In this document: positions 796 to 46,380 of the stretch, one piece after another
Layout of the letters: every line of letters begins with the position of its first letter
How positions within the stretch are numbered: position 1 is the stretch's first letter
Source: Chloroflexota bacterium
GTDB taxonomy: Bacteria > Chloroflexota > Anaerolineae > Anaerolineales > UBA11858
Direction: 5' to 3'
Assembly (NCBI GenBank): GCA_016865865.1
Contig: VGOC01000006.1
Span: 1-63,355, forward strand
DNA length: 63,355 bases
Translations under genes and position numbers: made by a program
The notes under the pieces: model-generated
Seen by the model: the letters and a program-made list of their open reading frames with translations, nothing else
What the model was told of the DNA's origin: nothing
Databases searched by the model: none

Positions 796-837
796 ACCAG
801 TGACCGCCTCGACAATGTCACATAACAGACAGGATGT

Positions 838-892
838 CCGAAAATAGGGGGTGGCAGGGGCGCTCCGCACCCCTGCCACCCCCTATTTTCGG
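838..892. repeat. Long palindrome (26-bp arms, TCC loop), member of the GNA-hairpin element family
   Basis: ccgaaaatagggggtggcaggggcgc-tcc-gcacccctgccaccccctattttcgg, one mismatch. Confidence 0.9.
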
Positions 893-941
893 TAATTCTC
901 TCTACGATGTTGTTTGCCGTAGAGGTGAAGTTACAGAAAAC

Positions 942-3215
942 ATGGCTCAAACGCAAAGCAAACCAAAACTCGTGCTGCCCCACGAAAAAACGCCGTTGAT
1001 CCTCCTGTCTCTGATCTTCGTGCTTTTCAGAGCCGGCCTGGAGATCAGCGGTAACTTCGCCGAGGTGATCTACTTCCGCCGGGTGGGGGTCGAAAATCTG
1101 CCCCAGCTCTACTCCGCTGAACCCCTGGCCATGGTCTTCGTGCTGGTGATCTTTAGCCTGATCGCCGACCGCATCAACCGACATCAATTGCTTCTAATCC
1201 TCAACCTGACTTTCGCCGCCGCGCTCATCGCAGCCCGGTTTTTGATCCTCCTGGCGGACTGGCAACCGATCTATTTCATACTTTACATCTGCCAGCGCAT
1301 CTTTTTCGCGCTGCTGCCGCTGACATTCTGGTTATTGTGCAGCGACCTGTTCGACATCCGTCAGGCTAAACGCCTGTTCGTGTTGATCACGGCAAGTGGT
1401 CTGGTGGGGATTCTATTGGGCAACCTGTTGACCGGTCTGCTCTCGGGGATTTTTGCGCCCGAGGAGATTCTAGCCCTGACGAGCGGCTTCTTCGTTGCCA
1501 GCCTTGGGGTGGGCGCCTGGCTTTCGAGGAGATCTTTGCCGAAGAGCTTTGTCAAACCGAAAGTCTCCACCGATGCGAGCTTTTCCCCCGTCCTTCCACT
1601 CGATATCCTCAAACAGCCCTTCATCCAGTTTTTCGCGCTGCTCATCCTCATCACCGGCATATTGGAACCGGTCTGGCGTTACGAATTGAACGCCATCGCC
1701 GATCAATCTTTCGCCGCTGAGAGCAGCCTGATCGCTTTCTACGGTTATTTCAAAGGCGCAGCTGTTCTGGTGGTAGTGATCTTCCAGCTTTTTCTGGCGG
1801 GCAGGTTGATCGAGATAATGGGAGTCCCCTGGGCGATCAGCACCCATCCCCTGGGGCTGGTCGGTATTATGCTTTTGCTGGGATTCTATCCTGTGCTCTG
1901 GATGGCTGTTGCCAGTGTGGCTCTGATCGGCGTCGTGCGCGTCGGCCTCGATGAATCTGGGCGTAAGGCGATCGTGGGCATTTACCCGCAGCACGAGCGC
2001 GCGCGGGCGAGCACCTTCGAGCGCCAGATGACCTATTTGGGGATTTTTCTGGGGGGATTATTTCTGATCTGGGCGGTGGATCATCTCAGCCTGGCGCAAA
2101 TCAACTGGATTGCCGCGGCCTTCGCGTCCACATGGATTATCGCCTTCCCTCGCTTCCGGGCGCAGTACGCCCAGGCCTGTCTGCGGCGTGGACGCTCGCC
2201 GCTCGACGACGCCGATCTACCTCAGTCTGCACGCCAACGCGGTACGCGCACCCTCTCGAACAGGAGCAACTCGAATGCCGCTTCCCTGATCGCCGACCAA
2301 CTCGAATGCGCCGATCAACTGGCCGCATGGCGCAGCATCCCTCATGTCCAAAAATTGATCGCGGAACAACGCGCCGCGGCTGCCCGGTCATGTTTGTTCC
2401 TGTTGGAAAGCCTCTACCCGGCGGGTGATATGCGGGTAGCCGCGCGGTTGTTACGCAGCCCGGCCTCGGACGTGCGCGCCAATGGCCTGGAAGCGCTGGA
2501 TATCATCCTTCGCAGGCCGCAAAAAAACCGCCTGATGATGCTCTTCGAAAGCGCCTTTGTTGAGGGCGACGAGCAGCGGGAAGATCTTCCAGAAGCAGAG
2601 CTTGTGACGTTTTTCGGAGAGATGTCGTTATCGCTCGATCCGGAAGCGGCCTTTTGGGGGAAGGTGTGGAGGCTGCGTTCTGGCGAGGGTGAGTATGCCC
2701 CGCCTGGTTATGGCATACCTGCTGAGTTGACTGTCCCGCTGGCGGCGGCGATCTACCCAAAAACTGGAGGTGAAGCGATGGAACTGGCCGATAAGATTGA
2801 TGCCCTACGGGCGAGCGACGCCTTCGCCGCCTTGAGCGAAGCAGAATTGCGCATAATTGCGTTATGCGCCAGAGAAGCCTATTATCCCCCCGACGAGGTG
2901 ATCTTCGAGGAGGGGCAGCAGGGCCATGCTCTTTACATTATATTAGATGGGCATGTCGAGTTGGCTTCCGTGGAGGAAAAGAAGAGTCTCCAGGCGCTCG
3001 GCCCCGGCGGCGTTTTCGGCGAGCACGCCCTTTTCACCGAAGAGCGTTACCCCCTGACTGCGGTAACTATTTCGGATAGCCGCATGTTGATCCTGGAACG
3101 GGAGATGTTCCTGGAGTTGATCCAATATTATCCCAATATTGCATTGAGCCTGCTAAAAAATCTAGCCAAACGCTTCGAAAAGGCCACTGCGCTGCTGCAG
3201 AAGGTTTGGGTGTGA
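942..3215 (+). CDS. NTT/TLC-like MFS membrane protein with short HEAT-like region and C-terminal cNMP-binding domain
   Basis: About 12 hydrophobic segments with FWLLCSDLFDIRQAKRLF; VRANGLEALD HEAT-like segment; IFEEGQQGHALYII...GGVFGEHALF cNMP domain. Start moved to ATG 942 because the ORF's 5' extension runs through the palindrome. Confidence 0.8.
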   Translation: MAQTQSKPKLVLPHEKTPLILLSLIFVLFRAGLEISGNFAEVIYFRRVGVENLPQLYSAEPLAMVFVLVIFSLIADRINRHQLLLILNLTFAAALIAARFLILLADWQPIYFILYICQRIFFALLPLTFWLLCSDLFDIRQAKRLFVLITASGLVGILLGNLLTGLLSGIFAPEEILALTSGFFVASLGVGAWLSRRSLPKSFVKPKVSTDASFSPVLPLDILKQPFIQFFALLILITGILEPVWRYELNAIADQSFAAESSLIAFYGYFKGAAVLVVVIFQLFLAGRLIEIMGVPWAISTHPLGLVGIMLLLGFYPVLWMAVASVALIGVVRVGLDESGRKAIVGIYPQHERARASTFERQMTYLGIFLGGLFLIWAVDHLSLAQINWIAAAFASTWIIAFPRFRAQYAQACLRRGRSPLDDADLPQSARQRGTRTLSNRSNSNAASLIADQLECADQLAAWRSIPHVQKLIAEQRAAAARSCLFLLESLYPAGDMRVAARLLRSPASDVRANGLEALDIILRRPQKNRLMMLFESAFVEGDEQREDLPEAELVTFFGEMSLSLDPEAAFWGKVWRLRSGEGEYAPPGYGIPAELTVPLAAAIYPKTGGEAMELADKIDALRASDAFAALSEAELRIIALCAREAYYPPDEVIFEEGQQGHALYIILDGHVELASVEEKKSLQALGPGGVFGEHALFTEERYPLTAVTISDSRMLILEREMFLELIQYYPNIALSLLKNLAKRFEKATALLQKVWV

Positions 3216-3216
3216 G

Positions 3217-3300
3217 ACCCCCCTTTCATCCCCCCATTTGCGCCGTGGAATTCCGAAGAATCGGTCAATCAGCAGCGCAAATGGGGGGAACGAGGGGGGT
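3217..3300. repeat. Intergenic REP-like inverted repeat (C-rich/G-rich arms)
   Basis: acccccctttcatccccccatttgcgc ... gcgcaaatggggggaacgaggggggt. Confidence 0.75.
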
Positions 3301-3311
3301 GGAGGTGAACT

Positions 3312-4169: not shown

Positions 4170-4180
4170 AACGTGATGCT

Positions 4181-4212
4181 TTTTACGTTTTACGTTTTAC
4201 GTTCTACGTTCT
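4181..4212. repeat. Heptamer tandem repeat (TTTTACG/TTCTACG)
   Basis: ttttacg ttttacg ttttacg ttctacg ttct at the gene junction. Confidence 0.85.
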
Positions 4213-4227
4213 CCCTCAGGCCATTCT

Positions 4228-5589: not shown

Positions 5590-5595
5590 TATGCC

Positions 5596-7971: not shown

Positions 7972-8085
7972 CTTCCGTCCAACCTTCCCGCTGAGCCTGT
8001 CGAATTCCTCTGAGTCCGGCGGCTTGCCGCCGATTATAGGAGCAAGTCCCTGACTCTAAATCGCCATCGGTTATTCGGATAGGTT

Positions 8086-9390: not shown

Positions 9391-9408
9391 CCACCAGACG
9401 AGGTTTTT

Positions 9409-11294: not shown

Positions 11295-11361
11295 AGTGCT
11301 GCCTCCAATCGCAACTAAAAGCTCACCGCTATTGCCTACACATCGGGTATGGAAATCCGAC

Positions 11362-12127: not shown

Positions 12128-12203
12128 TTCCTTAATTCAAATGGCGGCGATGATGGAGAATATATTAAACCCCCCAGGCAGAGCACATTACTTTTATAGC
12201 ATT

Positions 12204-12330
12204 AATGAGTCCACTGCAAAAACTGCGAGCAGAGGATTCGGGGCGGCATATATGGGGGTGCGTGCTGCGCACGCACCCCCATATATGCCGCCCCGCCCCC
12301 TCGTTCAGGAGTTTTTTCAGTGAATTCATT
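12204..12330. mobile_element. MITE-like palindromic element, type A copy 1
   Basis: TIR cactgcaaaaact / agttttttcagtg; perfect 27-bp central arms 12239-12295 with TGC loop. Confidence 0.8.
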
Positions 12331-12446
12331 GATCTCACTAGATTACAAGAGGTCAGGGCGTTCTTAAAGTCTGAAAGGCTGTCATTACGAGGCGGTCTTT
12401 ACCAAAGCAATCCCCAAATATGGCAGGGTGTAAATCGCCACCAGGA

Positions 12447-12668
12447 CGTTTCCCGACCTGTACCCCGATGTGATCTCCTCCCTGGGCGGACTGGAAGGCC
12501 TATTGGCGATCCTGTGTCTGCGCTTGGCCTCGGGCGCAGATCAGGAAAGCGAGTTGGAACTGCTGCGGCTGTCTACATTGGCCTGGAGGCAGAGGCGGTC
12601 GTCGCGCACATCTGCCGCGACCTGGGATCCTTCGTCGCAGATGCCCCCCAGGCGGATGATATTTCACT
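12447..12668 (+). pseudogene. Internally deleted remnant of a paralog of the SpoIIE phosphatase at 5596-7971
   Basis: Matches ~7034-7151 (EGLLAILCLRLA..ESELELL) joined directly to 7843-7949 (IGLEAEA..APQADDISL). Confidence 0.85.
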
Positions 12669-15600
12669 AATTTGCAACTCCTGCCCCACATTCAGGAACA
12701 CCAGCAAAACCCGCGGGCGCTGACCGAGTAGTTTGGCGACCGCCTCAGCGTAACGCTGCACCTGCTCAGCGTACTCTTCTCGTTGGATCGTATCACGTAT
12801 TTCAGCCTCGGAGCGCAATTCATCGGTTTTGAAGTCTGCGACCACCCATTCGCTCCCTGAGCGGTAGAGGAGGTCAATGTAGCCGTGGCCTTCGGGAGAA
12901 AAGTAGGGAACTTCGTGATGGCGTTCTGCGGAGTCGAGTTCGCGGAAGAGAGAATGGGCGCGCAGGCGTTGGAGCAGGCGGCGGGATTCGTGAATGGCGG
13001 CGCGGATTTCATCCTCGGCAGTCAGCCCAGATTCGAGAGCGAAGGGGCGGAGGAAGGTTTCGAGATCGTCGAAGCGCCAGCGGCGGAGGGCTTCGTGGAC
13101 GAGTCGTCCGACCAGCCAGGCGGGGGCGCGGGGACGTTTGGTTTTGGAAACGATGCGCCAGACGCGTTGGGGAGGGTCGCTCTCGCGGGCGCGGGTTTTG
13201 TCGTCGGTGGGAGAAGGAGTCGGGGCGAGGGGCGGGAGGAGATCGGGCTCGGGGGGAGAGTCGGATTGGGAGGCCGCGTTCCGCGCGGGGGAGTCGGATG
13301 CGTCGGCTGGGGAGGAGGAAGAGATCGAGGCGGAGATTCCGTCTGGGAGGAGGGGAGGCTCGGGCGTAGACATCCCGCGTAAAAAATCGAAGTGGGGGAG
13401 CCAGCCTTTGAGGGAGAGGCCGTCTTTGGCGGGCTTGACGCCGCCGCTGATGAGGAGTTTTTCTTTGGCGCGGGTCGCGGCGACGTAGAGCAAGCGGGCG
13501 TCTTCAGCGGCGTCGAGATCATCGTTAGCGCGGGAGGCGAGTTGCCAGGCGGTGGCGTGGAAGTCATCGTCGCGGAGGTCGAGGAGGAGGGTGGAAGCGA
13601 GGAGGGTTTTGGCGCGGGCGTGGGGAGGCTCGTAGGCGGCGTCGGCGATGACGACGAGGGGGAACTCGAGGCCTTTGGCTTTGTGGACGGTCATCAGTTG
13701 GACGGCACCTGAGGAGGACGCGTCGGCTGGCGCTTCGCCCTCGCGCAGGCCGACATCGCGCAGGGTCTGGACGTAGGCGAGGAAGTCGGTGAGGGAGACG
13801 AGGCGGGAGCGGTGCGCGTCGGCGAGGAGCTTTTCGACGTTGCGAATCATGCGCGCGCCGTTGGGAACTAAGGAGAGAATGGCACGATAAGATGTGAGGT
13901 CGAGGAAACGTTTGAGAATTGTCGAGGCGGAAGCGCGACCCGCGAGGGCATGGAGTTCTTCGAGGATGGAATAAACGCGTTGATGATTTCGAATCATCGA
14001 ACCGCGAAGACCGCTAAGAACGCTAAGAAATTCTATTGGTTTTTCTTCGCGACCTTCGCGTGCTTCGCGGTTAATCTCTGGAACGCGCAGGCGATAGATT
14101 TCGGGATCGGGAATCGCGAAGGCGGGAGAACGGAGCAAGCCTACGAGAGCAAGGTCGTCGGTGGGGTCGGCGATGGCGGCGAGGGCGTTGAGCAGGTCGC
14201 GGATTTCGGGGCGGTCGTAGAAGCCGCGTCCCGCGATGGTGACGAAGGGGATGTGCGCGACTTCGAGCGCGGATTCGTAGACAGGGAAGGTCATGGAGGA
14301 ACGGAAGAGCAGAGCCATCTCGCCGTAGTCGAATCCTTCGGTTTCGTGGAGTTGGCGGAGGCGATTCGCGAGGGCTTGCGCGGCGGACTGGCGTCCTTCT
14401 TCGGCTGAGTCGCCGAGGCCGAGGTGAAATTCGATGAAGGGAGGTCGGATTTTTTCGCGTTTGGGGTTTTGACGATAGGCGCGGAGAGGCGCAAAGGGGA
14501 CGAGGTAGGGACGCGCGGGGTCATCCGCTTCACCGAGGATGGGAGCGAGGAGAGAGTTGAGGGAGTCGAGGAGGGGTTTGTGGGCGCGGAAGGTGAGGTC
14601 GAGGTCAATGAGTTGTCCGCCCGCGGATTGGATATCGGATTGCACTTTGCGAAAGACGGTGACATCGGCTTGACGAAAGCGGTAGATGGATTGTTTGGAA
14701 TCGCCGACGATGAAGAGGTCAACACCCGCCCTCACCCCCGACCCCTCTCCCAATGCTGGGAGAGGGGAGAAATTCGTCAGCGCGTAGACGATTTTTCGCT
14801 GGCGGTCGTTGGTGTCCTGGAATTCGTCCACGAGGACAGCGCGGAGTTCGGACTGCCATTGGGCGCGGACGGAGGGATGGTCGGTGAGGAGGCTGGCAGT
14901 GAGGGATTCAAGGTCGTCGAAGTCGAGGGCTTGACGTTCATCTTTGCGGGTTTGGTACTCACGCAGGGTCTGGTCGAAGAGGCGGCAGACAGCGGGGAGG
15001 AACGCGGCAACCTGTTCGTCGAGGGCAAAGCGGGATTTTTCGGCGAGGAATTTGAGATTCTCATCATAGAGATCGCGCAAGATTTTCATCGCTTCACGGA
15101 CGGTTTCGATGTCGTCCCAGTTGGCTTTTTGTCCCTGCGTGGAGATGGCTTTGCGGAGGGCGGTCAGGTTTTCGAGAATCGCGTCCCACTCTTGCGCGGC
15201 GCGGGATTTTTGGATTTCGTTCCATGCGGCGAGAACGGATTGGCGGGCGAGTTCAAGTTTGTCTTCGGGGGATTTGGAACGAAGAGAAGTGAGAACAGAA
15301 AGAGAGTCAAGCCATGTTTGCGAATCAAGATGAGTGGCGAGATGGGAGTTAAGGGATAAGGCAAATGCGGTACACGGATTTGACGGATTACGCGGATTCT
15401 CACGGATTTCTATTTGTTTTTCTCCATGCAATTCCGTGAAATCTGTGTCATCCGTGTACAAAGGTTGAACGTCCAGCCTGCGGTTCATCAAAGCGTTGAG
15501 AATCTGTCGCAGTTCGTTTTCTTTGAACGCGCCGAATAGCGCGGCGGATGGTTCATCGCCTGTCGCCCAGGCGAGGGCAGATTCAACGGCCTCGGCTTGC

Positions 15601-16013
15601 AAGGCGGAGGCGAGTCCTTCTTCGAGGACTTCAAAGGCGGGGTCGAGTCCCGCTTCAGCGGGATGAGAGCGAAGGAGTTCGGCGCAGAGAGAGTGGATAG
15701 TTCCTATGCGGGCAGAATCGAATGATGAAGGATGAATGATGAAGGATGAATTTTTGTCTTGCGAAACATCAGTCGAAGAACGAGATAGAGAATCGCGAAT
15801 CCGCGAGCGCATTTCACGCGCGGCTTTTTCGGTGAAGGTGATGGCGAGGATGGAGCGGATTGAGTAGCCTTGTTCGAGCAAATGCAGGTAGCGCCCCACC
15901 AGCGAGAGGGTTTTTCCTGAACCCGCGCCAGCCGTAACCGCGATGGCGCGCGCGGAATCGGTGACGGCTTTTTCCTGGTTGCCTTTGAAGGAGAATTGCA
16001 AAAGGAGCGACAT
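12573..16013 (-). CDS. addA: AddA-like UvrD helicase with C-terminal PD-(D/E)XK nuclease
   Basis: AGAGSGKT, TFTEKAAREM, VDEFQDT, VGDSKQSIYRFR, MTVHKAKGLEF, YVAATRA, GYIDLL..DFKT; start overlaps the addB-like stop (TGATG). Confidence 0.85.
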   Translation of the reverse strand: MSLLLQFSFKGNQEKAVTDSARAIAVTAGAGSGKTLSLVGRYLHLLEQGYSIRSILAITFTEKAAREMRSRIRDSLSRSSTDVSQDKNSSFIIHPSSFDSARIGTIHSLCAELLRSHPAEAGLDPAFEVLEEGLASALQAEAVESALAWATGDEPSAALFGAFKENELRQILNALMNRRLDVQPLYTDDTDFTELHGEKQIEIRENPRNPSNPCTAFALSLNSHLATHLDSQTWLDSLSVLTSLRSKSPEDKLELARQSVLAAWNEIQKSRAAQEWDAILENLTALRKAISTQGQKANWDDIETVREAMKILRDLYDENLKFLAEKSRFALDEQVAAFLPAVCRLFDQTLREYQTRKDERQALDFDDLESLTASLLTDHPSVRAQWQSELRAVLVDEFQDTNDRQRKIVYALTNFSPLPALGEGSGVRAGVDLFIVGDSKQSIYRFRQADVTVFRKVQSDIQSAGGQLIDLDLTFRAHKPLLDSLNSLLAPILGEADDPARPYLVPFAPLRAYRQNPKREKIRPPFIEFHLGLGDSAEEGRQSAAQALANRLRQLHETEGFDYGEMALLFRSSMTFPVYESALEVAHIPFVTIAGRGFYDRPEIRDLLNALAAIADPTDDLALVGLLRSPAFAIPDPEIYRLRVPEINREAREGREEKPIEFLSVLSGLRGSMIRNHQRVYSILEELHALAGRASASTILKRFLDLTSYRAILSLVPNGARMIRNVEKLLADAHRSRLVSLTDFLAYVQTLRDVGLREGEAPADASSSGAVQLMTVHKAKGLEFPLVVIADAAYEPPHARAKTLLASTLLLDLRDDDFHATAWQLASRANDDLDAAEDARLLYVAATRAKEKLLISGGVKPAKDGLSLKGWLPHFDFLRGMSTPEPPLLPDGISASISSSSPADASDSPARNAASQSDSPPEPDLLPPLAPTPSPTDDKTRARESDPPQRVWRIVSKTKRPRAPAWLVGRLVHEALRRWRFDDLETFLRPFALESGLTAEDEIRAAIHESRRLLQRLRAHSLFRELDSAERHHEVPYFSPEGHGYIDLLYRSGSEWVVADFKTDELRSEAEIRDTIQREEYAEQVQRYAEAVAKLLGQRPRVLLVFLNVGQELQISEISSAWGASATKDPRSRQMCATTASASRPM

Positions 16014-21128: not shown

Positions 21129-21144
21129 ATTTTCTCCTTCGCGA

Positions 21145-24009
21145 TTATAACCCGCCTACTGCAATTTGTTCGTGGGCAAGTGCCACCAACTCTTTGACCG
21201 ACTCCAGCAACGTCTCTCCCGTCTTTGCGGACAAGGGAACCGCTTCTTCCCCCGCTTCGGGCGGGGCGGTGAGGTCGCGGACCTGGGAGAGTTTTTGCGC
21301 CAATTCCGCGGGGAGATGATTCTTGTCCACGAGTTCGGCTTGGACGAGGCGCGGGGACGGCAGGTCGGAGGAGGGGTCGCGGTCGGTGTGGAGGGCGAGG
21401 AGGGAGGTGAGCGCCCAGGCGAGGGATTCGCGCAGGGGACGCGTCATCTCTTCGGGGAAGTCGCCTTTGAGCAGCAGGTCGGCGAGGGCGAAACGCTTCG
21501 CGGCAAAGGCGAGACCCTCAGACGCGCGTTTGCGGCGCGCGGACGGGAGGTCGGCTTTGCGCGCTGGGGCGGAGATTTTCTCGGCGCAGTAGGCAACGTC
21601 CTCGATCGCGGGTTCGGCGGCGAGGGCGGGGACGAAGGAGGCGAGCGACTGGAAACCTTCGGAGTCCATCAGGTGAAGTTGCGGGAGGCTTTCCGTGAAG
21701 TATTCAGAGAGAAGCGCTTCGACGGTCGGACGCAGGTCGGCGGGAGCGCCAGAGACGACGACGATGACTCCCTCGCCCGTCGCGCCTGGCATGTAGGGCG
21801 CTTTGCGGACGAGCAGGATTCGGTTCGGGACGCGATCAAGCAACAGGTCGGCGAACCCGCTCAAAGTCGGGAGCGGGGCGAGGATTTCGGCGGGGGGCGC
21901 GGCCTCTTCGGGTACGGGAGCAGGCTCGGCTGGGGCAAGCGCGAGTTCCACCTCCGCAGGAGTCTTCAAAAGATCGCCTAATTTTTGCAGCAGGCTTTGA
22001 CCCATGTCCGCGAATTTGATGGCGGTCGGAGATTCGTCTGTGCCGAAGACGGCTGCGAAGACATTTTTCTTGGCGGCGAGGGTGTCGAGCATTCTCTCTT
22101 CGATGGTGCCTTTGGCAACGAGGTTGATGACCTGCACGGAGGAGGGCTGACCGTGACGATGCGCGCGGGCGATGCGCTGTTCGAGCACGGCGGGATTCCA
22201 GGGGAGGTCGAGGTTGATGACGAGCGAGGCGGCTTGCAGGTTGAGACCGACGCCACCCGCGTCGGTGGAGAGGAAGACGCGGCAGTCGGGATCATCAAAG
22301 AATTTTTCGATGAGCGCGCCGCGCTTGGCGGAGGGGACTGCGCCCGTCAGTTTGACGTAGCCGAGGCCGACACGCTCGATGATTGGCTCGGTGAGCGCCA
22401 GCATGTTCGACCACTGACTGAAGACGATGGCTTTATGACCGTTGGAGGCGATCTCTTCGACAAGCACTTCTTCGAACTCGCCGAGTTTGGGCGCGGTCTT
22501 TTCGGCTTCTTTGGGTTCGATATCTTTGTCGTGGAGGGCGAGGGCGTCACAGATCAGACGCATCTTGATGAGGTACATCAGAAGCAATTCCTGCTCTTTG
22601 GGCGTGAGCGGGCGCTTCTTGGCCTGGGCAAGTAGTTTGGCGAGTTTTTCCTGGAATTCGCTGTAATGCTTCCATTGCTCGTCGCTCATCTCGACGAAGA
22701 AGTTGTTGTCCACGCGGGCGGGCAGGTCTTTGAGGACTTCGTCGCGGGTGCGGCGCAGGACGTGCGGCTTGATGAGGGCGCGCAGTTCGTCAATGTTTTT
22801 GTAGCCGAGAACTTTGTATGTGCCGCTCTCGCGTTTTTCGAGTTCGTAAAATCTATCGTTGAAATGCCAGAGGGGTCCGAGGATGCGCTGGTCGAGAAAT
22901 TGGAAGATGCTGTACAACTCGTCAATGCGATTTTCGAGCGGCGTGCCTGTCAGGACGAAGGCGTAACGGCTCGGCAGGGACTTGACCATCATCGCAGTCT
23001 TGGCGCGCCAGTTCTTGATGCGTTGGGCTTCGTCGAGGATGATGAGGTCGGGGCGCAGTTTGAGCAATTCGTCCATGTCGTGACGGGCGAGTTCGTAGTT
23101 GATGATTTTGAAGAAGGAGGAGTCGGTGTAGAGTTTGCGGCGGTCGAGCAATCCGCCTTCGACGACGGTGACGGAGAGGGATGTGAAGCGGCGAATCTCG
23201 CGCGCCCATTGGTGCTTCAAAGAGGCGGGGCAGATGATGAGGGCGGTTTGGATGTCGCGGAGTTCTTTTAGCAATGCAGAAGCGGCAATCGCCTGGACCG
23301 TTTTTCCTAGGCCCATATCGTCCGCCAGCATGGCGCGACGGCCGAAGGCGAGGTGCATAGCGCCCTGTTCCTGGTACGGATACAGTTTCGTGGAAAGAAC
23401 GTCGAAGGTGCGGCGTCCGCTTTTGACTTGTTCGAGGAACCATTCTTTTTGTCTCGCCACTTCTTCGCGGTTTTGCAGGAGGGCGAGGTGCTCGTGGACG
23501 GCTTCGGTCACGCGGACGAGGGAGCGGTCGCGGGCGGGGAGGGATTCGATGTCCGCTAGAAGGGAGGGCAAGGTTTGGAGCGGCGCGCCCGCTAAAAGTC
23601 CAGAGGGATCGAAATAGCGGGCAAGCAGGTCTTTGACGCGGGCATCCTCGGGAATCGGGAGGGCGACGCGCACGGTCACGTCCATGCCGTGATGCAGGTA
23701 GATTTGAGTCCCGCGCGGGCGTTCGGCAGCGAGTTTCGCGAGTTTTTCCCCATGTTCCTTTTCGAGCGAGATCAACACGCCTTCGATGTGCTTGCAGGTG
23801 CCGATCAGATTGTTCTTGTAATCGGGGCAAGTGCAGGAGTTGTGCAGTTCGTCGAGGGAACGGATTTCCACCCGATAAGATTTCTTGGAAACCGAACTGA
23901 CTTCGAAGACGCTGAAGACGGGATGGTTGCCTTTGTTGGCAATCTTGAGAATTTCAGCGCGGGCGCGCTCGCGGCGGCGTTCGATCTGTTCCTGGATGTC
24001 GGTGGGCAT
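21145..24009 (-). CDS. SWIM Zn-finger SNF2-family helicase with HEPN-like C-terminal helical domain
   Basis: CTCPD..CKH SWIM; LADDMGLGKT, DEAQRIKN, LTGTPLEN, GGVGLNLQ, QRIARAHR; the HEPN-like tail is tentative. Confidence 0.85.
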   Translation of the reverse strand: MPTDIQEQIERRRERARAEILKIANKGNHPVFSVFEVSSVSKKSYRVEIRSLDELHNSCTCPDYKNNLIGTCKHIEGVLISLEKEHGEKLAKLAAERPRGTQIYLHHGMDVTVRVALPIPEDARVKDLLARYFDPSGLLAGAPLQTLPSLLADIESLPARDRSLVRVTEAVHEHLALLQNREEVARQKEWFLEQVKSGRRTFDVLSTKLYPYQEQGAMHLAFGRRAMLADDMGLGKTVQAIAASALLKELRDIQTALIICPASLKHQWAREIRRFTSLSVTVVEGGLLDRRKLYTDSSFFKIINYELARHDMDELLKLRPDLIILDEAQRIKNWRAKTAMMVKSLPSRYAFVLTGTPLENRIDELYSIFQFLDQRILGPLWHFNDRFYELEKRESGTYKVLGYKNIDELRALIKPHVLRRTRDEVLKDLPARVDNNFFVEMSDEQWKHYSEFQEKLAKLLAQAKKRPLTPKEQELLLMYLIKMRLICDALALHDKDIEPKEAEKTAPKLGEFEEVLVEEIASNGHKAIVFSQWSNMLALTEPIIERVGLGYVKLTGAVPSAKRGALIEKFFDDPDCRVFLSTDAGGVGLNLQAASLVINLDLPWNPAVLEQRIARAHRHGQPSSVQVINLVAKGTIEERMLDTLAAKKNVFAAVFGTDESPTAIKFADMGQSLLQKLGDLLKTPAEVELALAPAEPAPVPEEAAPPAEILAPLPTLSGFADLLLDRVPNRILLVRKAPYMPGATGEGVIVVVSGAPADLRPTVEALLSEYFTESLPQLHLMDSEGFQSLASFVPALAAEPAIEDVAYCAEKISAPARKADLPSARRKRASEGLAFAAKRFALADLLLKGDFPEEMTRPLRESLAWALTSLLALHTDRDPSSDLPSPRLVQAELVDKNHLPAELAQKLSQVRDLTAPPEAGEEAVPLSAKTGETLLESVKELVALAHEQIAVGGL

Positions 24010-24047
24010 AGTGAGCCTCCACAATTCATGACTGAGAAGATATCCCG

Positions 24048-24105
24048 ATTATAACGCGAGATCGCATATTCAGTTGTGATACTCGAGTTGTGATCGTGCT
24101 ATAAT
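24048..24105. promoter_or_regulatory. Divergent promoter region with AGTTGTGAT direct repeat
   Basis: TATAAT on - strand (24048-24053); TGcTATAAT on + strand (24097-24105); agttgtgat at 24072 and 24086. Confidence 0.45.
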
Positions 24106-24135
24106 GCTCGTGTTGCATTTTCGAAGGGACGCTCC

Positions 24136-24696
24136 ATGTTTATTACCCCGATACACACGATTGGATATGGTTCACGAGGGATAGATGCTTTCCTGGCTGC
24201 CCTGCAAGCCCATCAGATTCATTACCTGATAGATGTGCGCACCAGCCCATATTCCAGTTATAAGCCTGAATTTTCTAGAGCAAACCTGCAAAATACCGTT
24301 GAAGCGAACGGTATACGATATATCTTCATGGGCGACACCCTGGGGGGACAGCCGGATGACCCCGCTTGTTATACCAACGGCAAGGTAGATTACGAAAAAG
24401 TGGCCGATCAACCCTTTTACCAGCAGGGCATCGCCCGATTGCACGAAGCCAGCCGCCGGGGACAGCGTGTGGCACTGATGTGTAGCGAGGGTAAGCCGGA
24501 GAATTGTCACCGCAGCAAGTTGATCGGGAAGACGCTGGCCGCGGAGAGATTGGAAGTTCTGCATATTGATGAGGAGGATGAAGTCATCACCCAGGCGCAG
24601 GTGCTGCTACGCCTGACCGGCGGCCAGCCCAGCCTATTCGGGGATGATTTCTTCGCCTTTACATCGCGAAAGCGATACCGGGACGAATATAGGTAA
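24136..24696 (+). CDS. DUF488 family protein
   Basis: IHTIGYG, LIDVRTSPYS, LMCSEGKPENCHR. Confidence 0.9.
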   Translation: MFITPIHTIGYGSRGIDAFLAALQAHQIHYLIDVRTSPYSSYKPEFSRANLQNTVEANGIRYIFMGDTLGGQPDDPACYTNGKVDYEKVADQPFYQQGIARLHEASRRGQRVALMCSEGKPENCHRSKLIGKTLAAERLEVLHIDEEDEVITQAQVLLRLTGGQPSLFGDDFFAFTSRKRYRDEYR

Positions 24697-24737
24697 ACAA
24701 GGGATATCCTGCTTACCTTATAACACCATATTCCAAG

Positions 24738-24891
24738 CGGGCACAAATTGCGCTTTCGACCCAAACGGCGCCGGATGAATCCAGCTTTAGCCTCTTGCGG
24801 GGCAGGTTCAGCCGGATTCATCCGACGCAGCTTCGTAGCCCGGCGATTTATCGCCGGGCTGGTTGGCAGGCTAAAGCGCCTTCTATGCCCG
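24738..24891. repeat. Composite REP/REPIN-like element
   Basis: cgggca..tgcccg ends; gccggatgaatcc / ggattcatccg; GTAG-led palindrome gtagcccggcgatttatcgccgggct. Confidence 0.65.
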
Positions 24892-24913
24892 TGAGCAGTA
24901 TGACAAAGCTGCC

Positions 24914-25398
24914 ATGCTAAAAATTGTGACCATCGGCGTCTACGGATTTTCCGAAACCCAATTCTTCGAAACGCTGCAAGAGGCTGGCGTGGATGTCTTT
25001 TGCGATGTGCGCTGGCGGCGCGGGGTGCGCGGGTCGGAGTATGCCTTCGCCAATCATCAGCGCCTGCAAGCACGCCTGGAGAGCATGGGGATCGAATATA
25101 TCCATCGCAAAGACCTGGCCCCCATGCCGGAAATCCGCCAGCGACAAAGCGAAGCCGACCGCCGCGAACGGATCGCCAAGCGAAAACGCGAGTCGTTGAG
25201 CGCAGAGTTTGTCTCGGCGTATCAGGCGGAAATTCTATCCGCTTTCGACCCCCATGAATTCATCACTGCGCTGCCCGAGGGAAAGGAGGTGGTTGCCTTG
25301 TTTTGCGTAGAGAGAGAGCCTGCGGCCTGCCATCGCTCGCTGCTCGCGGAGAGTTTGCGTTGTATCGAGGGCATTGAAATAGAACATCTGAGGATAAA

Positions 25399-25402
<4 letters not shown>
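24914..25402 (+). CDS. DUF488 family protein (second paralog)
   Basis: IVTIGVYG, CDVR, LFCVEREPAACHRS. Confidence 0.88.
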
Positions 25403-28332
<2,930 letters not shown>

Positions 28333-28341
28333 TAAGATGTC

Positions 28342-28461
28342 TGAGTTCCCTGAAAAAACTCATGAATGAGGGGGCGGGGAGGCATATATGGGGGTGCGTG
28401 CTGCGCACGCACCCCCATATATGCCTCCCCGAATCCTCTACCCGTAGTTTTTTCAGTCGAG
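28342..28461. mobile_element. MITE-like palindromic element, type A copy 2 (inverted relative to copy 1)
   Basis: TIR ctgaaaaaact / agttttttcag; perfect 27-bp arms 28375-28431, TGC loop. Confidence 0.8.
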
Positions 28462-28486
28462 TAACTTCTTACTGCCCAGGTACGAA

Positions 28487-29548: not shown

Positions 29549-29558
29549 AGAAAACATC

Positions 29559-31652
29559 ATGCCAATCGATCCCTCCCTGAACCCCTTTTTCAATCCCCAG
29601 GGCGTCGTCGTCATCGGCGCATCGAACGATCCCACCAAGCTGGGCTACGGCCTGGCGATCAACCTGGTGCGCAGCAACTACCAGGGGGCGGTGCATTTCG
29701 TCAACATCAAAGGCGGCAAGCTGTTTGGACGCCCGATCTACACCAACGTGCTCGAAGTCCCCAACCCGGTTGACCTGGCCGCGGTGCTGATCCCTGCGCC
29801 CCTTGTGGCCGACGCCTTGCGCCAATGCGGGCAGCGCGGCATCCAGGCTGTCATCATCGGTTCTGGCGGATTCCGTGAGGTGGGCGCCGAAGGCGCAAAA
29901 CTCGAAGCAGAGGTCCTGGAAGTCGCCCGCCAATACCGCATCCGGCTGATCGGCCCGAACTGCATCGGACTGCTCGACACTCACTTACCGATAGATACAA
30001 CCTTCCTGCCGCCGCCCGGCCCTACCCCGGGCGATGTGGCCTTCATCTCCCATTCTGGCGCCATCTGCGCGGCGGTCATTGATTGGGCGCGCGGCCAGGG
30101 GTATGGCCTCTCGCGCTTGTTGAGTTTGGGCAATCAGGCCGATGTCAGCGAGACGGATATGCTGGTTCCCGTGGCTGCCGATCCCTACACGCGGGTGCTG
30201 GCGTTGTATCTGGAAGGCGTCAAAGATGGACGACGGTTCATCGAGCAAGCGCGTCAGGTGGTGCGCGAGAAGCCGATCATCGCCCTCAAGGTCGGTCGTT
30301 TCGGGAGCGGCCAAAGGGCGGTGGCCTCTCACACCGGCGCGCTGGCTGGCCAGGAGAGCGCCTACAACGCCGCTTTCCGCCGCGCAGGGGTATTGCGTGC
30401 TGAAACCAGTGAGGAGATGTTCGACCAGGCGCGCGCCCTGGCCTGGTGTCCGCCGACGAGGGGGCGACGGGTAGCCGTGTTGACCAATGCGGGCGGACCG
30501 GGAGTCACGGCGGCGGACGCCCTCGAATCTTTGGGGCTGGAACTGGCTGAATTCAGCGGACATACGCGCGCCGCCCTGGGGGTGATTCTGCCTCCCGCAG
30601 CCAGCCTGCACAATCCGGTGGATATGCTGGCATCCGCCACCCCCGATCAATTCGCCGAGAGCCTGCGCATTGCGCTGGCCGACCCCGGCGTAGATAACGT
30701 GATGATCATCTTCCCCACGCCGCCGATGTACACCGCCGGCTCGGTTGCCAAAGCCGTCATTCCTGTGATCCACAGCGCCGAGAAGCCGGTGGTGGTTGCT
30801 GTGATGGGGGAGCGTTTGATCCAGGAGGCCGTGGAACACTTCCGCGCCGCTCATGTGCCCGAATATCGCTTCCCCGAGCGTGCAGCCGCAGCCCTGGCCG
30901 CGCTGGTCGAGCGCGCCGAATTGCTCGAATACGCCCTGGCTGAGCCAGTGAGACCGGTCGAGACTTCCGAAGTCTTTACGCAGCGCTTCGAGCGCAGCGA
31001 GGAAGCAGAGACTTCGGAAGTCTTGATGCTGCTCGACGCCTACGGCATCCCCATGGCCAGGATGGAATTAGCCCGATCTGCGGACGAAGCCCTTGCCATT
31101 GCACGTCGAATAGGGTTGCCGGTCGCCCTCAAAGTCGCCTCGCCAGAGATCTCTCACAAATCTGATGTCGGCGGGGTGTTGCTCAATTTAGGGGATGAAG
31201 CGGCCATCTGCAGCGGATACGAAGAGATCCTTCGACGGGCGCGATCAGCCCACCCCCAGGCCGAAATCCAGGGGGTCTTCGTCCAGCCCATGATCCCCTC
31301 GGGTCAAGAAGTCATCATCGGAGCGGTGCAGGACCCCCAGTTCGGCGCACAGGTGATGTTCGGCTCTGGAGGCACGGAGGTCGAGGGGCTGAAAGATATC
31401 GCCTTCGGATTGGCGCCCCTGACCCGGCTCGAAGCAGAATACATGTTGAAGAGCACCTGGGCTGGTCGCAAGCTCGAAGGTTTTCGCAACATTCCGCCCG
31501 CCGACCGGGAGGCCGTGTTAGATGTCCTCATCAGGCTGGCGCAACTGGCTGCCGACCACCCCGCTCTAGGGGAAATCGAAATCAATCCACTGCGGGTGTT
31601 GCCCAAAGGCCAGGGCGTTGTGGCCGTAGATGTGAGGACGGGTTGCCGATGA
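29559..31652 (+). CDS. Acetate/acyl-CoA ligase (ADP-forming), fused alpha-beta
   Basis: VIGASNDPTKLG, IGPNCIG, ASHTGALAG, TNAGGPG, HKSDVGGV, EINPL. Confidence 0.92.
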   Translation: MPIDPSLNPFFNPQGVVVIGASNDPTKLGYGLAINLVRSNYQGAVHFVNIKGGKLFGRPIYTNVLEVPNPVDLAAVLIPAPLVADALRQCGQRGIQAVIIGSGGFREVGAEGAKLEAEVLEVARQYRIRLIGPNCIGLLDTHLPIDTTFLPPPGPTPGDVAFISHSGAICAAVIDWARGQGYGLSRLLSLGNQADVSETDMLVPVAADPYTRVLALYLEGVKDGRRFIEQARQVVREKPIIALKVGRFGSGQRAVASHTGALAGQESAYNAAFRRAGVLRAETSEEMFDQARALAWCPPTRGRRVAVLTNAGGPGVTAADALESLGLELAEFSGHTRAALGVILPPAASLHNPVDMLASATPDQFAESLRIALADPGVDNVMIIFPTPPMYTAGSVAKAVIPVIHSAEKPVVVAVMGERLIQEAVEHFRAAHVPEYRFPERAAAALAALVERAELLEYALAEPVRPVETSEVFTQRFERSEEAETSEVLMLLDAYGIPMARMELARSADEALAIARRIGLPVALKVASPEISHKSDVGGVLLNLGDEAAICSGYEEILRRARSAHPQAEIQGVFVQPMIPSGQEVIIGAVQDPQFGAQVMFGSGGTEVEGLKDIAFGLAPLTRLEAEYMLKSTWAGRKLEGFRNIPPADREAVLDVLIRLAQLAADHPALGEIEINPLRVLPKGQGVVAVDVRTGCR

Positions 31653-32782
31653 ATGAAGCCTGGCGGGTCGCTGAGCTATTTACTCTCGCGGGGAGGGTAA
31701 TAGATGTCAGGGCGCACGGCGAAGGCAACATCAACGATACCTACCTGGTCACAATCGCTCGAAAGCCCCAGCCCTCCGAGAAATTCATCTTACAACGCAT
31801 CAATACCCACGTATTCAAACGCCCGGAATGGATCGTTGCCAACATGCGCGCCATCACGGAACATGTCGGAGGCAAATCGGTACACGAAAGCGGCGCTTCG
31901 AACCGCAGATGGGAGCTGCCGACGCTACGATCCACGCAGCAGGGAGAGGATTTCTTCGTGGATTCCCAGGGGGCCTTTTGGCGGGCGATCAACTTCATCG
32001 CTGGCGCAAGGGCTTTCGATACCGTCCAAAGCCAGGCGCATGCCCGCGAGGCAGGCTATGCCCTGGGGCGCTTCCAGAGACTGCTGAGCGATCTCGATCC
32101 TGGAAGGCTCCACGATACGCTGGTCGGTTTTCACATCACCCCACGATATCTGCACGCCTATGACGAAGCGGTGAGTCGTCCCTCTCGGGTCGTCGAGTCG
32201 CCTGAGACGCGCTATTGCCACCGCATGATCGCAGAACGCCGCCATTGGGCCTCGGTTCTGGAGGACGCCAGGGATCGAGGCAGGCTGCAAGTCCGCATCA
32301 TGCACGGGGACCCCAAAATAGACAATATCATGATCTGCGAGGAGACTGGCCAGGCGGTCAGCATCATTGATCTGGATACGGTCAAACCAGGCCTGATACA
32401 GTATGACATCGGCGATTGCCTGCGTTCCAGTTGCAATCCTTTGGGTGAGACCACCAGTAAGCTCGATGATGTGCGTTTCGAAACCGACCTCGCCCAGGCC
32501 ATCCTCGAAGGATATTGTTCGGTCGCCGATGAATTCCTGACCGAGAACGACTACGCATACATGTACGACAGCATCCGTCTGTTGACCTTCGAATTGGGGT
32601 TGAGATTTTTCACAGACTTTCTGGCGGGGGATGTGTACTACAAGATCAAATACCCCGAACACAACCTGGAACGCGCCATGGTGCAGTTCAGGTTGACGGA
32701 GAGCATCGAGGTTCAAGAGGCGGCTATACGCGCCATCATCGCTGATCTTATCCCCTTTGCAGCAGCGATGGCTGCAAAGTAA
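31649..32782 (+). CDS. APH/choline-kinase-fold phosphotransferase (N-acetylhexosamine 1-kinase-like)
   Basis: GEGNINDTY, ILQRIN, HGDPKIDN, IDLDTV, YDIGD. Confidence 0.85.
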   Translation: MNEAWRVAELFTLAGRVIDVRAHGEGNINDTYLVTIARKPQPSEKFILQRINTHVFKRPEWIVANMRAITEHVGGKSVHESGASNRRWELPTLRSTQQGEDFFVDSQGAFWRAINFIAGARAFDTVQSQAHAREAGYALGRFQRLLSDLDPGRLHDTLVGFHITPRYLHAYDEAVSRPSRVVESPETRYCHRMIAERRHWASVLEDARDRGRLQVRIMHGDPKIDNIMICEETGQAVSIIDLDTVKPGLIQYDIGDCLRSSCNPLGETTSKLDDVRFETDLAQAILEGYCSVADEFLTENDYAYMYDSIRLLTFELGLRFFTDFLAGDVYYKIKYPEHNLERAMVQFRLTESIEVQEAAIRAIIADLIPFAAAMAAK

Positions 32783-33022
32783 CACCCGTCCTCGGGCGCC
32801 CCGGGGACGGGGCTGGAGATCGTTTTTGTGTGATTTTTCGTTGGGATACTAAGCTGTCGAGGGTAACAGTTTCTCGTAACTCTCAACCAGAATCGCTCCG
32901 GGCTTTTCACCCCGTCTATTGTCTATTGGATTCAGGATCGGTTGACGAGCTTTCCGTAGGTTATATCCATTGCAGCTGATTTCCGATTCGGGAAGTGTCA
33001 ACTTTTATACTGCTCTCAATAA

Positions 33023-33134
33023 TAGGACTTACGCAGTTGCATAAGAGAAGCCCGGAAATTGGGGGTGTGCGGGGTGCTTCGCACCCCGCACACCCCCAAT
33101 TTCCGGTATTTTTTATCGAACTGCGTAAGTCCTG
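33023..33134. mobile_element. MITE-like palindromic element, type B, with target-site duplication
   Basis: 15-bp TIR aggacttacgcagtt / aactgcgtaagtcct; 26-bp central arms with TTC loop; flanking direct repeat tcaataa (33016, 33135). Confidence 0.85.
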
Positions 33135-33160
33135 TCAATAATAGACTTCGCTTCATGCCT

Positions 33161-34180
33161 TCAGAGTTTATGGGCCGATTGACGGAGGGAGTCGAGCCGC
33201 GCCTGGGGCAGGCCGGGCAACACTTCCAGGGCAAAGAAAATGCCTGTCCCTTCGGAAACGATCGAGGCCGAAACGTTGCCATTCAGCACTGCCTCGAGTG
33301 GATCGTATGTGCGCCGATAGCCGGCCAGGAATCCGCCGCAAAATGCGTCACCCACCCCGGTAGGGTTGACCAGCCGCGCCGGATAGGCAGGGATCTCCCA
33401 ACGAGACCCCGAGGCTGCCTCATAGAGCCATTGGCCGCGCTCCCCGCGTTTGATGACCACGAAATCGCATCCATAGGCCGCGATGGCTTCGGCCATTTCC
33501 CATGGGTCTTTGGAGCGTCCTTCGAAGAGCGCCCGCAGGTCCTCCTCCGCCGGAAGAAAGGCGGTCAGCCCGGTGATCAGGCTGGGGACATCATTCCAGA
33601 AAGTCGCATTCATATACCCTGGGGCCGGGTCGAGCGTAACGGTGGTGATGCTCCCCTGGCGCAACACCGCCGGGATCAGGCTGTGAGTCATATAATCGAG
33701 CGGACATAGATGCGCGGCCGATGCCTCCAGATAGATAGCGGGGATATCCCCCTGGCGCAACGAGACTGGCGTCAGCTTCATACGACTATCGAGGGCCTCG
33801 CTGGAGTCTCTATATCCCAACAAAGCCTTCGGGAAAGGCACTCCCAGACGAGCGAAGTGCGTCACCGGGTTGCCTTTGACGCGAGTGGCTTTATCGGTGT
33901 ATATGTAGAAATTCCTCACGTCAACGGCCTCGGGAAGCACGTTCACGCCTCGGGTGTCGAACCCCCTTTGGGCCAGTTCGTCCAGCCAGCCTTGGGGATA
34001 GTCCTCGCCAACACGGGCGATCAACCCTGGGGGAGGCGTGTCCTCCCATAGCTTCGATCCAACGGCGGCATAGGGCGCATTGCCCCCCAGCACATCTACC
34101 ATGGCTTTATCGTCAGCCGTGATGAAGAAGTCACGGTATAACTCCCCAGCGAAGATGAAGCGCGGCGTTTCCATTGTCAT
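33161..34180 (-). CDS. PfkB family carbohydrate kinase
   Basis: GGNAPYAA, VIKRGERG, NPTGVGDAFCGGF. Confidence 0.9.
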   Translation of the reverse strand: MTMETPRFIFAGELYRDFFITADDKAMVDVLGGNAPYAAVGSKLWEDTPPPGLIARVGEDYPQGWLDELAQRGFDTRGVNVLPEAVDVRNFYIYTDKATRVKGNPVTHFARLGVPFPKALLGYRDSSEALDSRMKLTPVSLRQGDIPAIYLEASAAHLCPLDYMTHSLIPAVLRQGSITTVTLDPAPGYMNATFWNDVPSLITGLTAFLPAEEDLRALFEGRSKDPWEMAEAIAAYGCDFVVIKRGERGQWLYEAASGSRWEIPAYPARLVNPTGVGDAFCGGFLAGYRRTYDPLEAVLNGNVSASIVSEGTGIFFALEVLPGLPQARLDSLRQSAHKL

Positions 34181-34222
34181 GAGGTCATTATACTGATCTT
34201 TTCGTTATTGTGCATGCTTTTT

Positions 34223-34331
34223 GTGTGCGCACAAAATATGTAAGGGATTGTCCCGAAAAAGGGGTGTGGGCGTGCTCCGCACGCCCACACCCCTTTTTCG
34301 GGAATCCCTCTGACAACATTTGCACGCACAC
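34223..34331. mobile_element. MITE-like palindromic element, type C
   Basis: Imperfect TIR gtgtgcgcacaaa / tttgcacgcacac; 25-bp arms 34251-34303 with TCC loop. Confidence 0.75.
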
Positions 34332-34375
34332 TACTTGTTCGTAATCATGCGAAATGGCGCGAATGTTGATAAAAT

Positions 34376-34487
34376 GTAACTACTCAGCCAAACGGGGAAG
34401 TTCCCGAAAAAAGGGTGTGCGTAGGGGGCTGCGCCCCCTACGCACACCCTTTTTTCGGGCTAATCCGTTCGATGGCTGAGCAGTTAC
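34376..34487. mobile_element. MITE-like palindromic element, type D, with target-site duplication
   Basis: TIR gtaactactcagcca / tggctgagcagttac; 27-bp arms with TGC loop; flanks gataaaat / gataaaaa. Confidence 0.85.
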
Positions 34488-34506
34488 GATAAAAAGTGTT
34501 TATCTT

Positions 34507-42270: not shown

Positions 42271-42274
42271 AATC

Positions 42275-46347: not shown

Positions 46348-46380
46348 GGCTTCTTGATATCAGGCTTGATCTTTCGGATA

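Follow-up and report, generated by a model that had tools for sequence, protein, structure and literature searches.

Strand polarity of GC-GNA-GC loops in the palindromes of miniature inverted-repeat elements from an Anaerolineales lake bacterium

Analysis of a 63,355-nucleotide stretch of DNA (the window) from an uncultured Anaerolineales (Chloroflexota) lake bacterium revealed six long palindromes, each closed by a 3-nt loop and each located in the centre of a short repeated element. The window is the entire contig C6 of a metagenome-assembled genome (MAG; G000) of 3.25 Mb, which was assembled from short reads into 168 contigs and is 94% complete. The species was also detected in lake-water metagenomes. 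An earlier note, made from the sequence of the window, had reported the palindromes, and all six are present, with arms of 25 to 27 nt (Table 1). The loop context is GC-TNC-GC on the plus strand in six out of six palindromes, which reads GC-GNA-GC on the minus strand (N, any base). A perfect pair of 25-bp arms is expected about 6e-11 times per 63 kb of random sequence (63355 x 4^-25). Folded as single strands, the palindromes of the window reached -36.5 to -39.1 kcal/mol (z ~ -12). The probability of finding all six loops on one strand by chance is 1/32 (two-sided), as the note had calculated, and the clustering of loop orientation proved to be real genome-wide too, as determined by permutation.

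The arms of the six palindromes differ in sequence, as had been stated, but they are not wholly unrelated, and a G-rich core resembling GGGGTGTGCG is common to all. Likewise, the elements are not six unrelated sequences. Those at 12239 and 28375 belong to one family, which leaves five families, and the terminal inverted repeats (TIRs) do differ between these families. A TIR layout had been assigned to five of the six palindromes; all six lie in repeated TIR-type elements, including the one at 838, which has three other copies. Both of the proposed target-site duplications (TSDs) exist as repeats and both had to be revised. TCAATAA is a real direct repeat on the two sides of the family D element, but three of the four family D copies have 5-bp duplications. 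GATAAAA is duplicated as described but forms part of an 8-bp duplication. None of the 46 proteins predicted in the window matches any transposase family (E<=1e-5), in agreement with the note, and the single Rfam match in the window is a tRNA. Each of the six palindromes forms the stem-loop in the middle of an ordinary, non-autonomous cut-and-paste (DDE-type) miniature inverted-repeat transposable element (MITE), and the elements represent five families (A, B twice, D, E, and F).

Table 1. Positions of the MITEs, their palindromes, and other features in the window.
Feature	Position	Strand	Structure	Loop or further features
MITE family E	807..903	.	Left TIR resembles CCTCGACAATGTCA; right TIR degenerate here, may reach ~925	BLAST copies on contigs C24, C107, C102
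E central palindrome	838..892		26-nt arms with a single C.A mismatch, three pairs away from the loop	TCC (+), 864-866
MITE family B, copy 1	12207..12327	.	TIR GAGTCCACTGCAAAAACT / GAATTCACTGAAAAAACT	
B copy 1 palindrome	12239..12295		Perfect 27-nt arms	TGC (+), 12266-12268; -39.1 kcal/mol for the DNA fold of either strand
MITE family B, copy 2	28343..28463	.	Body inverted relative to copy 1 (flank types swapped)	Same plus-strand loop as copy 1
B copy 2 palindrome	28375..28431		Perfect 27-nt arms	TGC (+), 28402-28404
MITE family D	33023..33134	.	TIR TAGGACTTACGCAGTT	Flanked by TCAATAA, 33016-33022 / 33135-33141
D palindrome	33052..33106		Perfect 26-nt arms	TTC (+), 33078-33080
MITE family F	34223..34331	.	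TIR GTGTGCGCRCAAAA	6 copies; 9-bp TSDs in other copies
F palindrome	34251..34303		Perfect 25-nt arms	TCC (+), 34276-34278
MITE family A	34376..34487	.	TIR GTAACTACTCAGCC / GTAACTGCTCAGCC	8-bp TSD, GATAAAAT at 34368-34375 / GATAAAAA at 34488-34495, 7/8 positions match
A palindrome	34403..34459		Perfect 27-nt arms	TGC (+), 34430-34432
DNA-repair/helicase gene cluster	12576-19246 and 21148-28329			
AbiEi/AbiEii pairs	59559-62673		Two tandem pairs	
tRNA gene	62740-62811			
Other repeats	42272-42371, 14000-14072, 15370-15459, 30958-31026, 46314-46348			

A census of G000 (arms of at least 16 nt, at most two mismatches) yielded 423 hairpins, 293 of them with 3-nt loops. The tip reads GCGNAGC in 142 and GCTNCGC in 123 of these triloop palindromes (265/293), with all four bases occurring in the middle position. 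Almost all of these GNA-apex hairpins (260/265) are intergenic and lie between tandem genes (159), between divergent genes (60), between convergent genes (22), or at contig edges (19). The elements are 90 to 121 bp long and non-coding, with clear TIRs in families A, B, C, D, and F; the family E TIR is seen in the copy on C107 and is degenerate in the copy of the window. Family A comprises 177 complete copies (169 in the 110-119 bp bin), and an exact 8-bp TSD was found in 113/177. Family B has 56 complete copies (69 hairpins by pattern) and unclear TSDs of 6 to 8 bp, which are missing in 18/56. Family C, which occurs outside the window, has 26 copies with 18-nt arms and an exact 8-bp TSD in the same register in 11/26. 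Family D is present in four full copies, three with a 5-bp TSD, and a partial match on C27; 30 hairpins of this family were found in the genome of a sister species (G010). Families E and F are small, with four and six copies, respectively, and family F has TSDs of 9 bp. This confirms the proposal that the palindromes lie within non-autonomous elements of several families that carry TIRs and TSDs, since the TIRs differ and the TSDs measure 5, 8, 8, and 9 bp. Because both features differ between families, the sequences point to mobilization of the MITEs by several transposase families. A search for partner insertion sequences (IS) through pairs of TIRs 200 to 4000 bp apart returned only ordinary genes, so that no IS with the same TIRs was found in this MAG, which is 94% complete and in which, as in MAGs often, IS may fail to assemble.

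The hairpins of the different families share a common design, with an A/T-rich base, a GGGGTGTGCG-like core, a G-rich top, and the GC-GNA-GC tip. The description of the hairpin as convergent is therefore not supported as it was worded. The search for empty sites in congeners was confined by flanking genes of only 70-81% identity and intergenic DNA that does not align; one relative (the congener G009) carries an element of family D at the corresponding junction (L009:2560-2650), with a different stem and a 21-nt apex. The k=31 contigs from lake samples gave no sign of empty alleles over positions 32500-35500, and one joint (32812 to 34375, side 28) falls in repeats.

In families A, B, and C, the two ends of the element can be distinguished, and the orientation of its body can be assigned. 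The earlier note had regarded the hairpin as cargo, and a cargo carried in a fixed way predicts that the loop goes with the body. The four possible pairings of body with loop orientation were counted 40/31/32/23 times in family A (13 unassigned; Fisher p=0.86) and 9/10/7/11 times in family B (15 unassigned; Fisher p=0.74). Loop orientation is thus independent of the body in families A and B, and the idea of a fixed cargo does not hold for them. The two family B copies of the window are an example, with opposite bodies and the identical loop on the plus strand. In family C, with its 18-nt arms, the loop tends to go with the body (13 vs 5, p=0.07). Because loop orientation is uncoupled from element orientation, the loop appears to be set after insertion. 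Within subfamilies, identical stems carry either one loop or its reverse complement (GCA/TGC, GTA/TAC, GAA/TTC, and GGA/TCC), and the middle base moves with the flip (GTA<->TAC, GCA<->TGC). As far as sequences can tell, reverse-complement triloops on the same stems are what inversion of the spacer by intermolecular template switching is known to leave behind. Passages of PMC8604942 document this spacer inversion, together with homogenization of the arms, as reversible and favoured by long perfect arms. Homogenization by template switching would explain stems that are perfect and nevertheless differ in sequence between subfamilies.

Strand composition was determined as GC and AT skew at third codon positions, corrected for gene orientation, either contig-wide or within +/-40 kb of a hairpin. 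The corrected skew is coherent along contigs, having the same sign in both halves of 31 of the 37 contigs of at least 30 kb (r=0.81). Adjacent hairpins on a contig agree in loop orientation in 107/158 pairs, compared with 79.1 +/- 6.2 after permutation, and 107 was reached in 0/5000 permutations. Loop orientation was also correlated with uncorrected local skew, positively for GC (r=0.22-0.32) and negatively for AT. With the contig-wide corrected skew, GNA lies on the G/T-rich strand in 161/240 hairpins and in 136/189 at an absolute skew of at least 0.05; with the +/-40 kb window, the count is 137/195 (p=1.5e-8). A sign-flip test over whole contigs gave p=2e-4, and the majority of loops agreed with the skew on 61 of 83 contigs. 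These results indicate that loop polarity is tied to the chromosome strand on a large scale, as the note had suspected.

The agreement with skew amounts to 73/107 in family A, 34/38 in family B, 6/13 in family C, and 24/37 in the other families. It is 117/161 for arms of at least 25 nt and 20/34 for shorter arms. Two controls were negative. The bodies of the MITEs agreed with the skew in 53/97 cases in family A and 18/30 in family B, whereas the loops of the same elements agreed in 65/97 and 26/30, respectively. GCGNAGC heptamers outside hairpins were unpolarized (892 vs 861).

The same polarity was found in the sister species G010, which represents a separate assembly with separate MITE families, mainly family D and a GGGCGC-GNA-GCGCCC family. 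From this genome, 1.22 Mb around 75 apex matches were taken, containing 72 hairpins, 66 of them with enough flanking genes. The loops agreed with the skew in 46/66 hairpins (p=0.002), in 43/59 at an absolute skew of at least 0.05, and in 29/36 at an absolute skew of at least 0.15. The contig sign-flip test over 50 contigs gave p=8e-4.

Some hairpins have other tips. The triloops ACA (three times), TCT (twice), ATA, and TTT each correspond to one C-to-T transition at the cytosine of a TNC loop, which is what deamination of an unpaired C would be expected to produce. Survivorship by deamination of loop cytosines was rejected as a source of the polarity, since these seven triloops are far too few to make a 70:30 bias. 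In the sister species, family A hairpins are often tipped by a 12-nt asymmetric module, GCCGCTTTGCGC or its complement, and not by GNA; it occurs in both orientations (loci among L020-L071, e.g., L020:1711-1790 and L042:4290-4360). The 12-nt GCGCAAAGCGGC apex module of G009 agreed with the skew in 6/12 cases, measured in 8-kb windows only.

In bacteria, the G-rich and T-rich strand is, as a rule, the leading strand. The G/T-rich strand of G000 is the sense strand of the S10 ribosomal-protein operon, of rpoB, and of the 23S rRNA gene, and the single hairpin on each of these three contigs has GNA on the G/T-rich strand. If the G/T-rich strand is the leading strand, it follows that GNA lies on the sequence of the lagging-strand template.

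The explanation toward which we lean is that the loops of the MITEs invert after insertion by template switching and approach an equilibrium that is linked to the direction of replication. After copying the first arm, a nascent strand would anneal to the second arm of the other template and take the loop sequence from there. Intermolecular switching of this kind between perfect arms would invert the loop repeatedly during replication, and the same process would keep the arms complementary. The two states of the loop would be inequivalent, as d(GCGNAGC) is expected to form a stable single-strand mini-hairpin and its complement is not; GCGNAGC mini-hairpins are described as extraordinarily stable in parts of PMC13037366. 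The rate of switching would be governed by the ease of self-folding of each template strand. On the lagging-strand template, a GNA hairpin would conceal the landing site, and on the leading-strand template, it would stall the polymerase and promote the switch. Flip rates would then differ according to the template strand that carries GNA, and the population would settle at approximately 70-90% GNA on the G/T-rich strand. This strand would have the sequence of the leading strand and hence that of the lagging-strand template, which would become single-stranded at the fork. A slight further excess of GNA on the non-template strand of transcribed DNA would be in line with this.

Several observations weigh against inversion toward a replication-linked equilibrium. 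We infer, rather than map, the identity of the G/T-rich strand with the leading strand. The skew does not switch at dnaA (C9:18894-20186), the tRNA genes are divided into 20 co-oriented and 23 anti-oriented with the G/T-rich strand (6/49 skipped), and only 52.8% of coding bases are co-oriented with it. The polarity amounts to only ~70%. The corrected skew of the window contig is 0.007, and its six loops, which the note had tentatively linked to a replichore, are not assignable to one at a skew of about zero. Pair concordance is 0.70-0.73 up to 40 kb and then 29/61 at 40-70 kb and 4/10 beyond, with few large contigs contributing; a decay with distance would not be expected of a replichore-wide property. 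Internal switches of the corrected skew occur in four or five contigs, including C2 (~31 kb), C16 (~19 kb), C12, and C35. Such sharp switches are more numerous than one origin and one terminus explain, which suggests rearrangements or chimeric contigs. On C2, 8/10 loops past the switch disagree with the local skew, and the loops stay uniform across it. Family A shows no clear age trend, with agreement in 30/46, 31/44, and 12/17 hairpins in the order of rising divergence. Nearest-neighbour fold energies are identical for both strands, so that the postulated asymmetry rests on the published biophysics of 7-mers and not of 57-mers. No flip was directly observed at one locus, the lake-sample data being k=31 contigs and not raw reads. 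Both G000 and G010 are short-read MAGs. Finally, in G042, a genome from another family of the same order, 23 contigs contain 24 sites with GGGGAGC-GNA-GCTCCCC hairpins (L105-L124), of which 4 point forward and 20 point in the reverse direction in contig coordinates. Contig coordinates should be arbitrary, and the two-sided binomial probability of this split is ~0.002. The skew of this genome (67% GC) has absolute values of up to 0.07, too small for strand assignment. The split may reflect non-random orientation by the assembler or submitter, or chance, and some assemblies may treat such loops non-randomly.

An alternative that we consider unlikely is selection. A GNA hairpin would be useful or harmless on the lagging-strand template and would impede the replisome on the leading-strand template, and flips or insertions that produce the wrong state would be purged. 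Selection predicts the same direction of polarity as that observed, and a useful role can be imagined, e.g., as a signal for priming or for exclusion of single-stranded DNA-binding protein (SSB), like the mini-hairpins of phage G4 and of the RSF1010 ssi sites. GCGNAGC mini-hairpins are placed at recognition sites of primase and of N4 RNA polymerase in sections of PMC13037366. In addition, the GNA apex is found again in MITE families that are unrelated to one another and in two other genomes from this order. The lack of polarity of the heptamer outside hairpins argues against selection, as do the ~30% of copies that are in the "wrong" state and the quite different apexes that the same MITE carries in the sister species.

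Artefact or chance would require that short-read assemblers set the 3-nt centre between 27-bp perfect arms arbitrarily or by rule, giving runs of equal loops contig by contig. The short-read origin of both MAGs, the breaking of k=31 contigs at repeated elements, and the uneven split in G042 are compatible with this explanation, which we nevertheless hold to be quite improbable. An assembler is blind to skew, and the orientation of contigs is arbitrary. Since the association with skew survives the flipping of contigs in two assemblies, G000 and G010, an assembler artefact cannot explain it. Furthermore, the two loop orientations are balanced (142 vs 123 in G000 and 38 vs 34 in G010), and contigs are not uniform. 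The orientation of the loop at 34251 was the same in 4/4 other lake samples (1297-nt k=31 contig, 33105-34401; runs X2, X3, X4, and X6) and was thus reproduced in four independent assemblies. This single-copy F hairpin is the only one bridged in the Logan k=31 contigs of the lake samples, which break at the high-copy A and D elements.

We give little credence to an explanation at the RNA level, according to which the hairpins are bidirectional intrinsic terminators or RNA stabilizers, the loop is favoured for its sequence in the RNA (GNA or UNC), and the strand pattern only reflects the orientation of genes. A-runs and T-runs do occur at the base of the stems in families A, D, E, and F, and 33056-33102 was called terminator-like, which was the only call among four hairpins (28375, 33052, 34251, and 34403) in a simple terminator scan of 27-36 kb. 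GNA is also in slight excess on the sense strand between tandem genes (91/159). However, loop orientation showed no significant correlation with the local gene strand (r=0.05-0.14), and the skew had been corrected for gene orientation. The polarity is kept between divergent or convergent genes, where there is no net direction of transcription (46/61). Between tandem genes, the loops agree with the skew in 54/72 cases where the genes run along the G/T-rich strand and still lean to the skew where the genes oppose it (29/48). Finally, only 22/265 hairpins lie between convergent genes, compared with 60 between divergent genes.

It is highly improbable that the polarity is imposed by a Y1/HUH transposase of the REP (repetitive extragenic palindrome)/RAYT (REP-associated tyrosine transposase) or IS200/IS605 kind acting on hairpins of the lagging-strand template. 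Transposases of these types do target such hairpins, according to parts of PMC5027513 and PMC6006769, and G000 encodes three Y1 domains, one of which scores as a REP-associated tyrosine transposase at 93 bits. The Y1 genes have different repeats of their own, however, which are 161-nt units in the case of C1 and CAAAAGCAAGCTTTTGCA hairpins in that of C51. The GNA hairpins lie inside TIR elements with 5-9 bp TSDs, which are not made by Y1 transposition, and the polarity concerns the loop only. The first Y1 locus (C1:23455-26796, L005) consists of an IS200-like gene amid five or six 161-nt tandem units. The second (C51:1-2272, L007) is a RAYT-like gene flanked by 103-nt tandem units with CAAAAGCAAGCTTTTGCA palindromes. 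The third Y1 domain (L006) is part of a 525-aa fusion protein with a response-regulator receiver.

Scarcely credible is the version of the earlier note, in which hairpins of fixed orientation insert or survive one way relative to the replichore: orientation biases of IS relative to replication are known from passages of PMC3971601, but loop and body are independent in families A and B, the body is unrelated to skew, and only family C could behave in this way.

If inversion toward a replication-linked equilibrium is correct, template switching at palindromes, usually regarded as a source of sporadic and undirected mutations, would be directional in vivo, and a 3-nt loop sequence could steer it. 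It is possible, although we advance it only tentatively, that the loops represent a self-resetting compass of replication direction. Fast, strand-biased flipping would report the current lagging-strand template before the skew has re-equilibrated after a rearrangement, and the GNA hairpins may also serve as sites of priming or SSB exclusion. Under this interpretation, contig C2 and the window, with near-unanimous loops and a switched or weak skew, would be explained by loops that reset faster than skew. Such a natural read-out of fork direction could be used to orient contigs of uncultured genomes and to date rearrangements. The polarity would, moreover, provide an easy way to examine whether the extraordinary stability of d(GCGNAGC), which is known from test-tube experiments, matters in a living chromosome.

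The window contains further features besides the MITEs. The tRNA gene adjoins two tandem AbiEi/AbiEii pairs (type IV toxin-antitoxin). A cluster of DNA-repair and helicase genes is bracketed by the two family B MITEs; it encodes an AddA-like UvrD helicase, an AddB-like PD-(D/E)XK nuclease, an SNF2 helicase, two DUF488 proteins, and a RecQ with an N-terminal dual-OB domain. Among the other repeats, heptamer-like tandem repeats (GGATGTT / AACATCC) build inverted arrays, and short palindromes of the AGACTTCGGAAGTCT type (16-18-nt arms) recur genome-wide with 1-nt or 3-nt loops.

Among prokaryotic MITEs, a terminator-like stem-loop is present in Correia (Neisseria), in RUP, BOX, and SPRITE (Streptococcus pneumoniae), and in Nezha (cyanobacteria). 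The elements described here resemble these MITEs in their size (~100 bp), non-coding nature, TIRs, TSDs, tens to hundreds of intergenic copies, and strong central hairpin. They differ in that a single type of hairpin, a perfect stem of 25-28 bp capped by GC-GNA-GC, recurs in several families whose TIRs and TSD lengths are unrelated, and in that the cap is not coupled to the element but is polar with respect to the strand of the chromosome. Chi, KOPS (FtsK orienting polar sequences), and "architecture imparting sequences" are protein-read words that are polar with respect to the replichore wherever they occur. The orientation of the GNA loops likewise correlates with a replication-associated strand, but GCGNAGC, unlike these words, loses its polarity outside hairpins.

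REP elements, bacterial interspersed mosaic elements (BIMEs) with their RAYTs, and the ends of IS200/IS605 are also hairpin DNA with a biology tied to the lagging-strand template. They lack TIRs and TSDs. In G000, the polarity is that of the loop only, and the RAYT-like genes have other partner repeats. In the portion of PMC3733652 that describes it, a REP is an imperfect palindrome of 20-40 bp, one end of which bears a GTAG or CGTC tag. Membership in the REP/RAYT system was rejected for the GNA hairpins, the stems of which are 50-59 bp, perfect, and start with CCCGAAAA, CGGGGCGGCAT, or GGGGGGTG, with no tag at either end; the three Y1 loci are flanked by repeats other than GNA hairpins. IS200/IS605-derived palindrome-associated transposable elements (PATEs), which have subterminal hairpins and neither TIR nor TSD, were excluded by the presence of TIRs and TSDs. 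The attC sites of integrons, as presented in parts of PMC5371416, share with the GNA hairpins a folded single strand, the availability of which depends on its location in the lagging-strand template. The orientation of attC is set by the cassette array and read by the integrase (passages of PMC5371416), whereas the hairpin described here would re-orient its own tip.

The d(GCGNAGC) mini-hairpin of Hirao and co-workers, as treated in sections of PMC13037366, is identical in its 7-mer to the tips in G000, with all four middle bases. In those sections, it is found as isolated 7-10-mers at priming sites of phages and plasmids and at the N4 promoter; here, it lies at the tip of stems of 25-28 bp within MITEs of the chromosome and is known from its sequence. 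Flipping of loops is already known, and the strand polarity of GNA loops appears to be new: full-text literature searches covering main texts, including those on single-strand transposition, found no description of strand-polar GNA loops in bacterial repeats. The closest counterpart is spacer inversion according to the Ripley model in yeast, where passages of PMC8604942 report perfect arms and a reversible reverse complementation of spacers of 2-5 nt that is commoner with long arms. Several of these yeast examples also have GC-tcc-GC or CC-ttc-GG tips (PMC8604942, same passages). The yeast inversions, as they appear there, are undirected and concern single loci, whereas hundreds of loci in the Anaerolineales genome display a steady-state strand bias.

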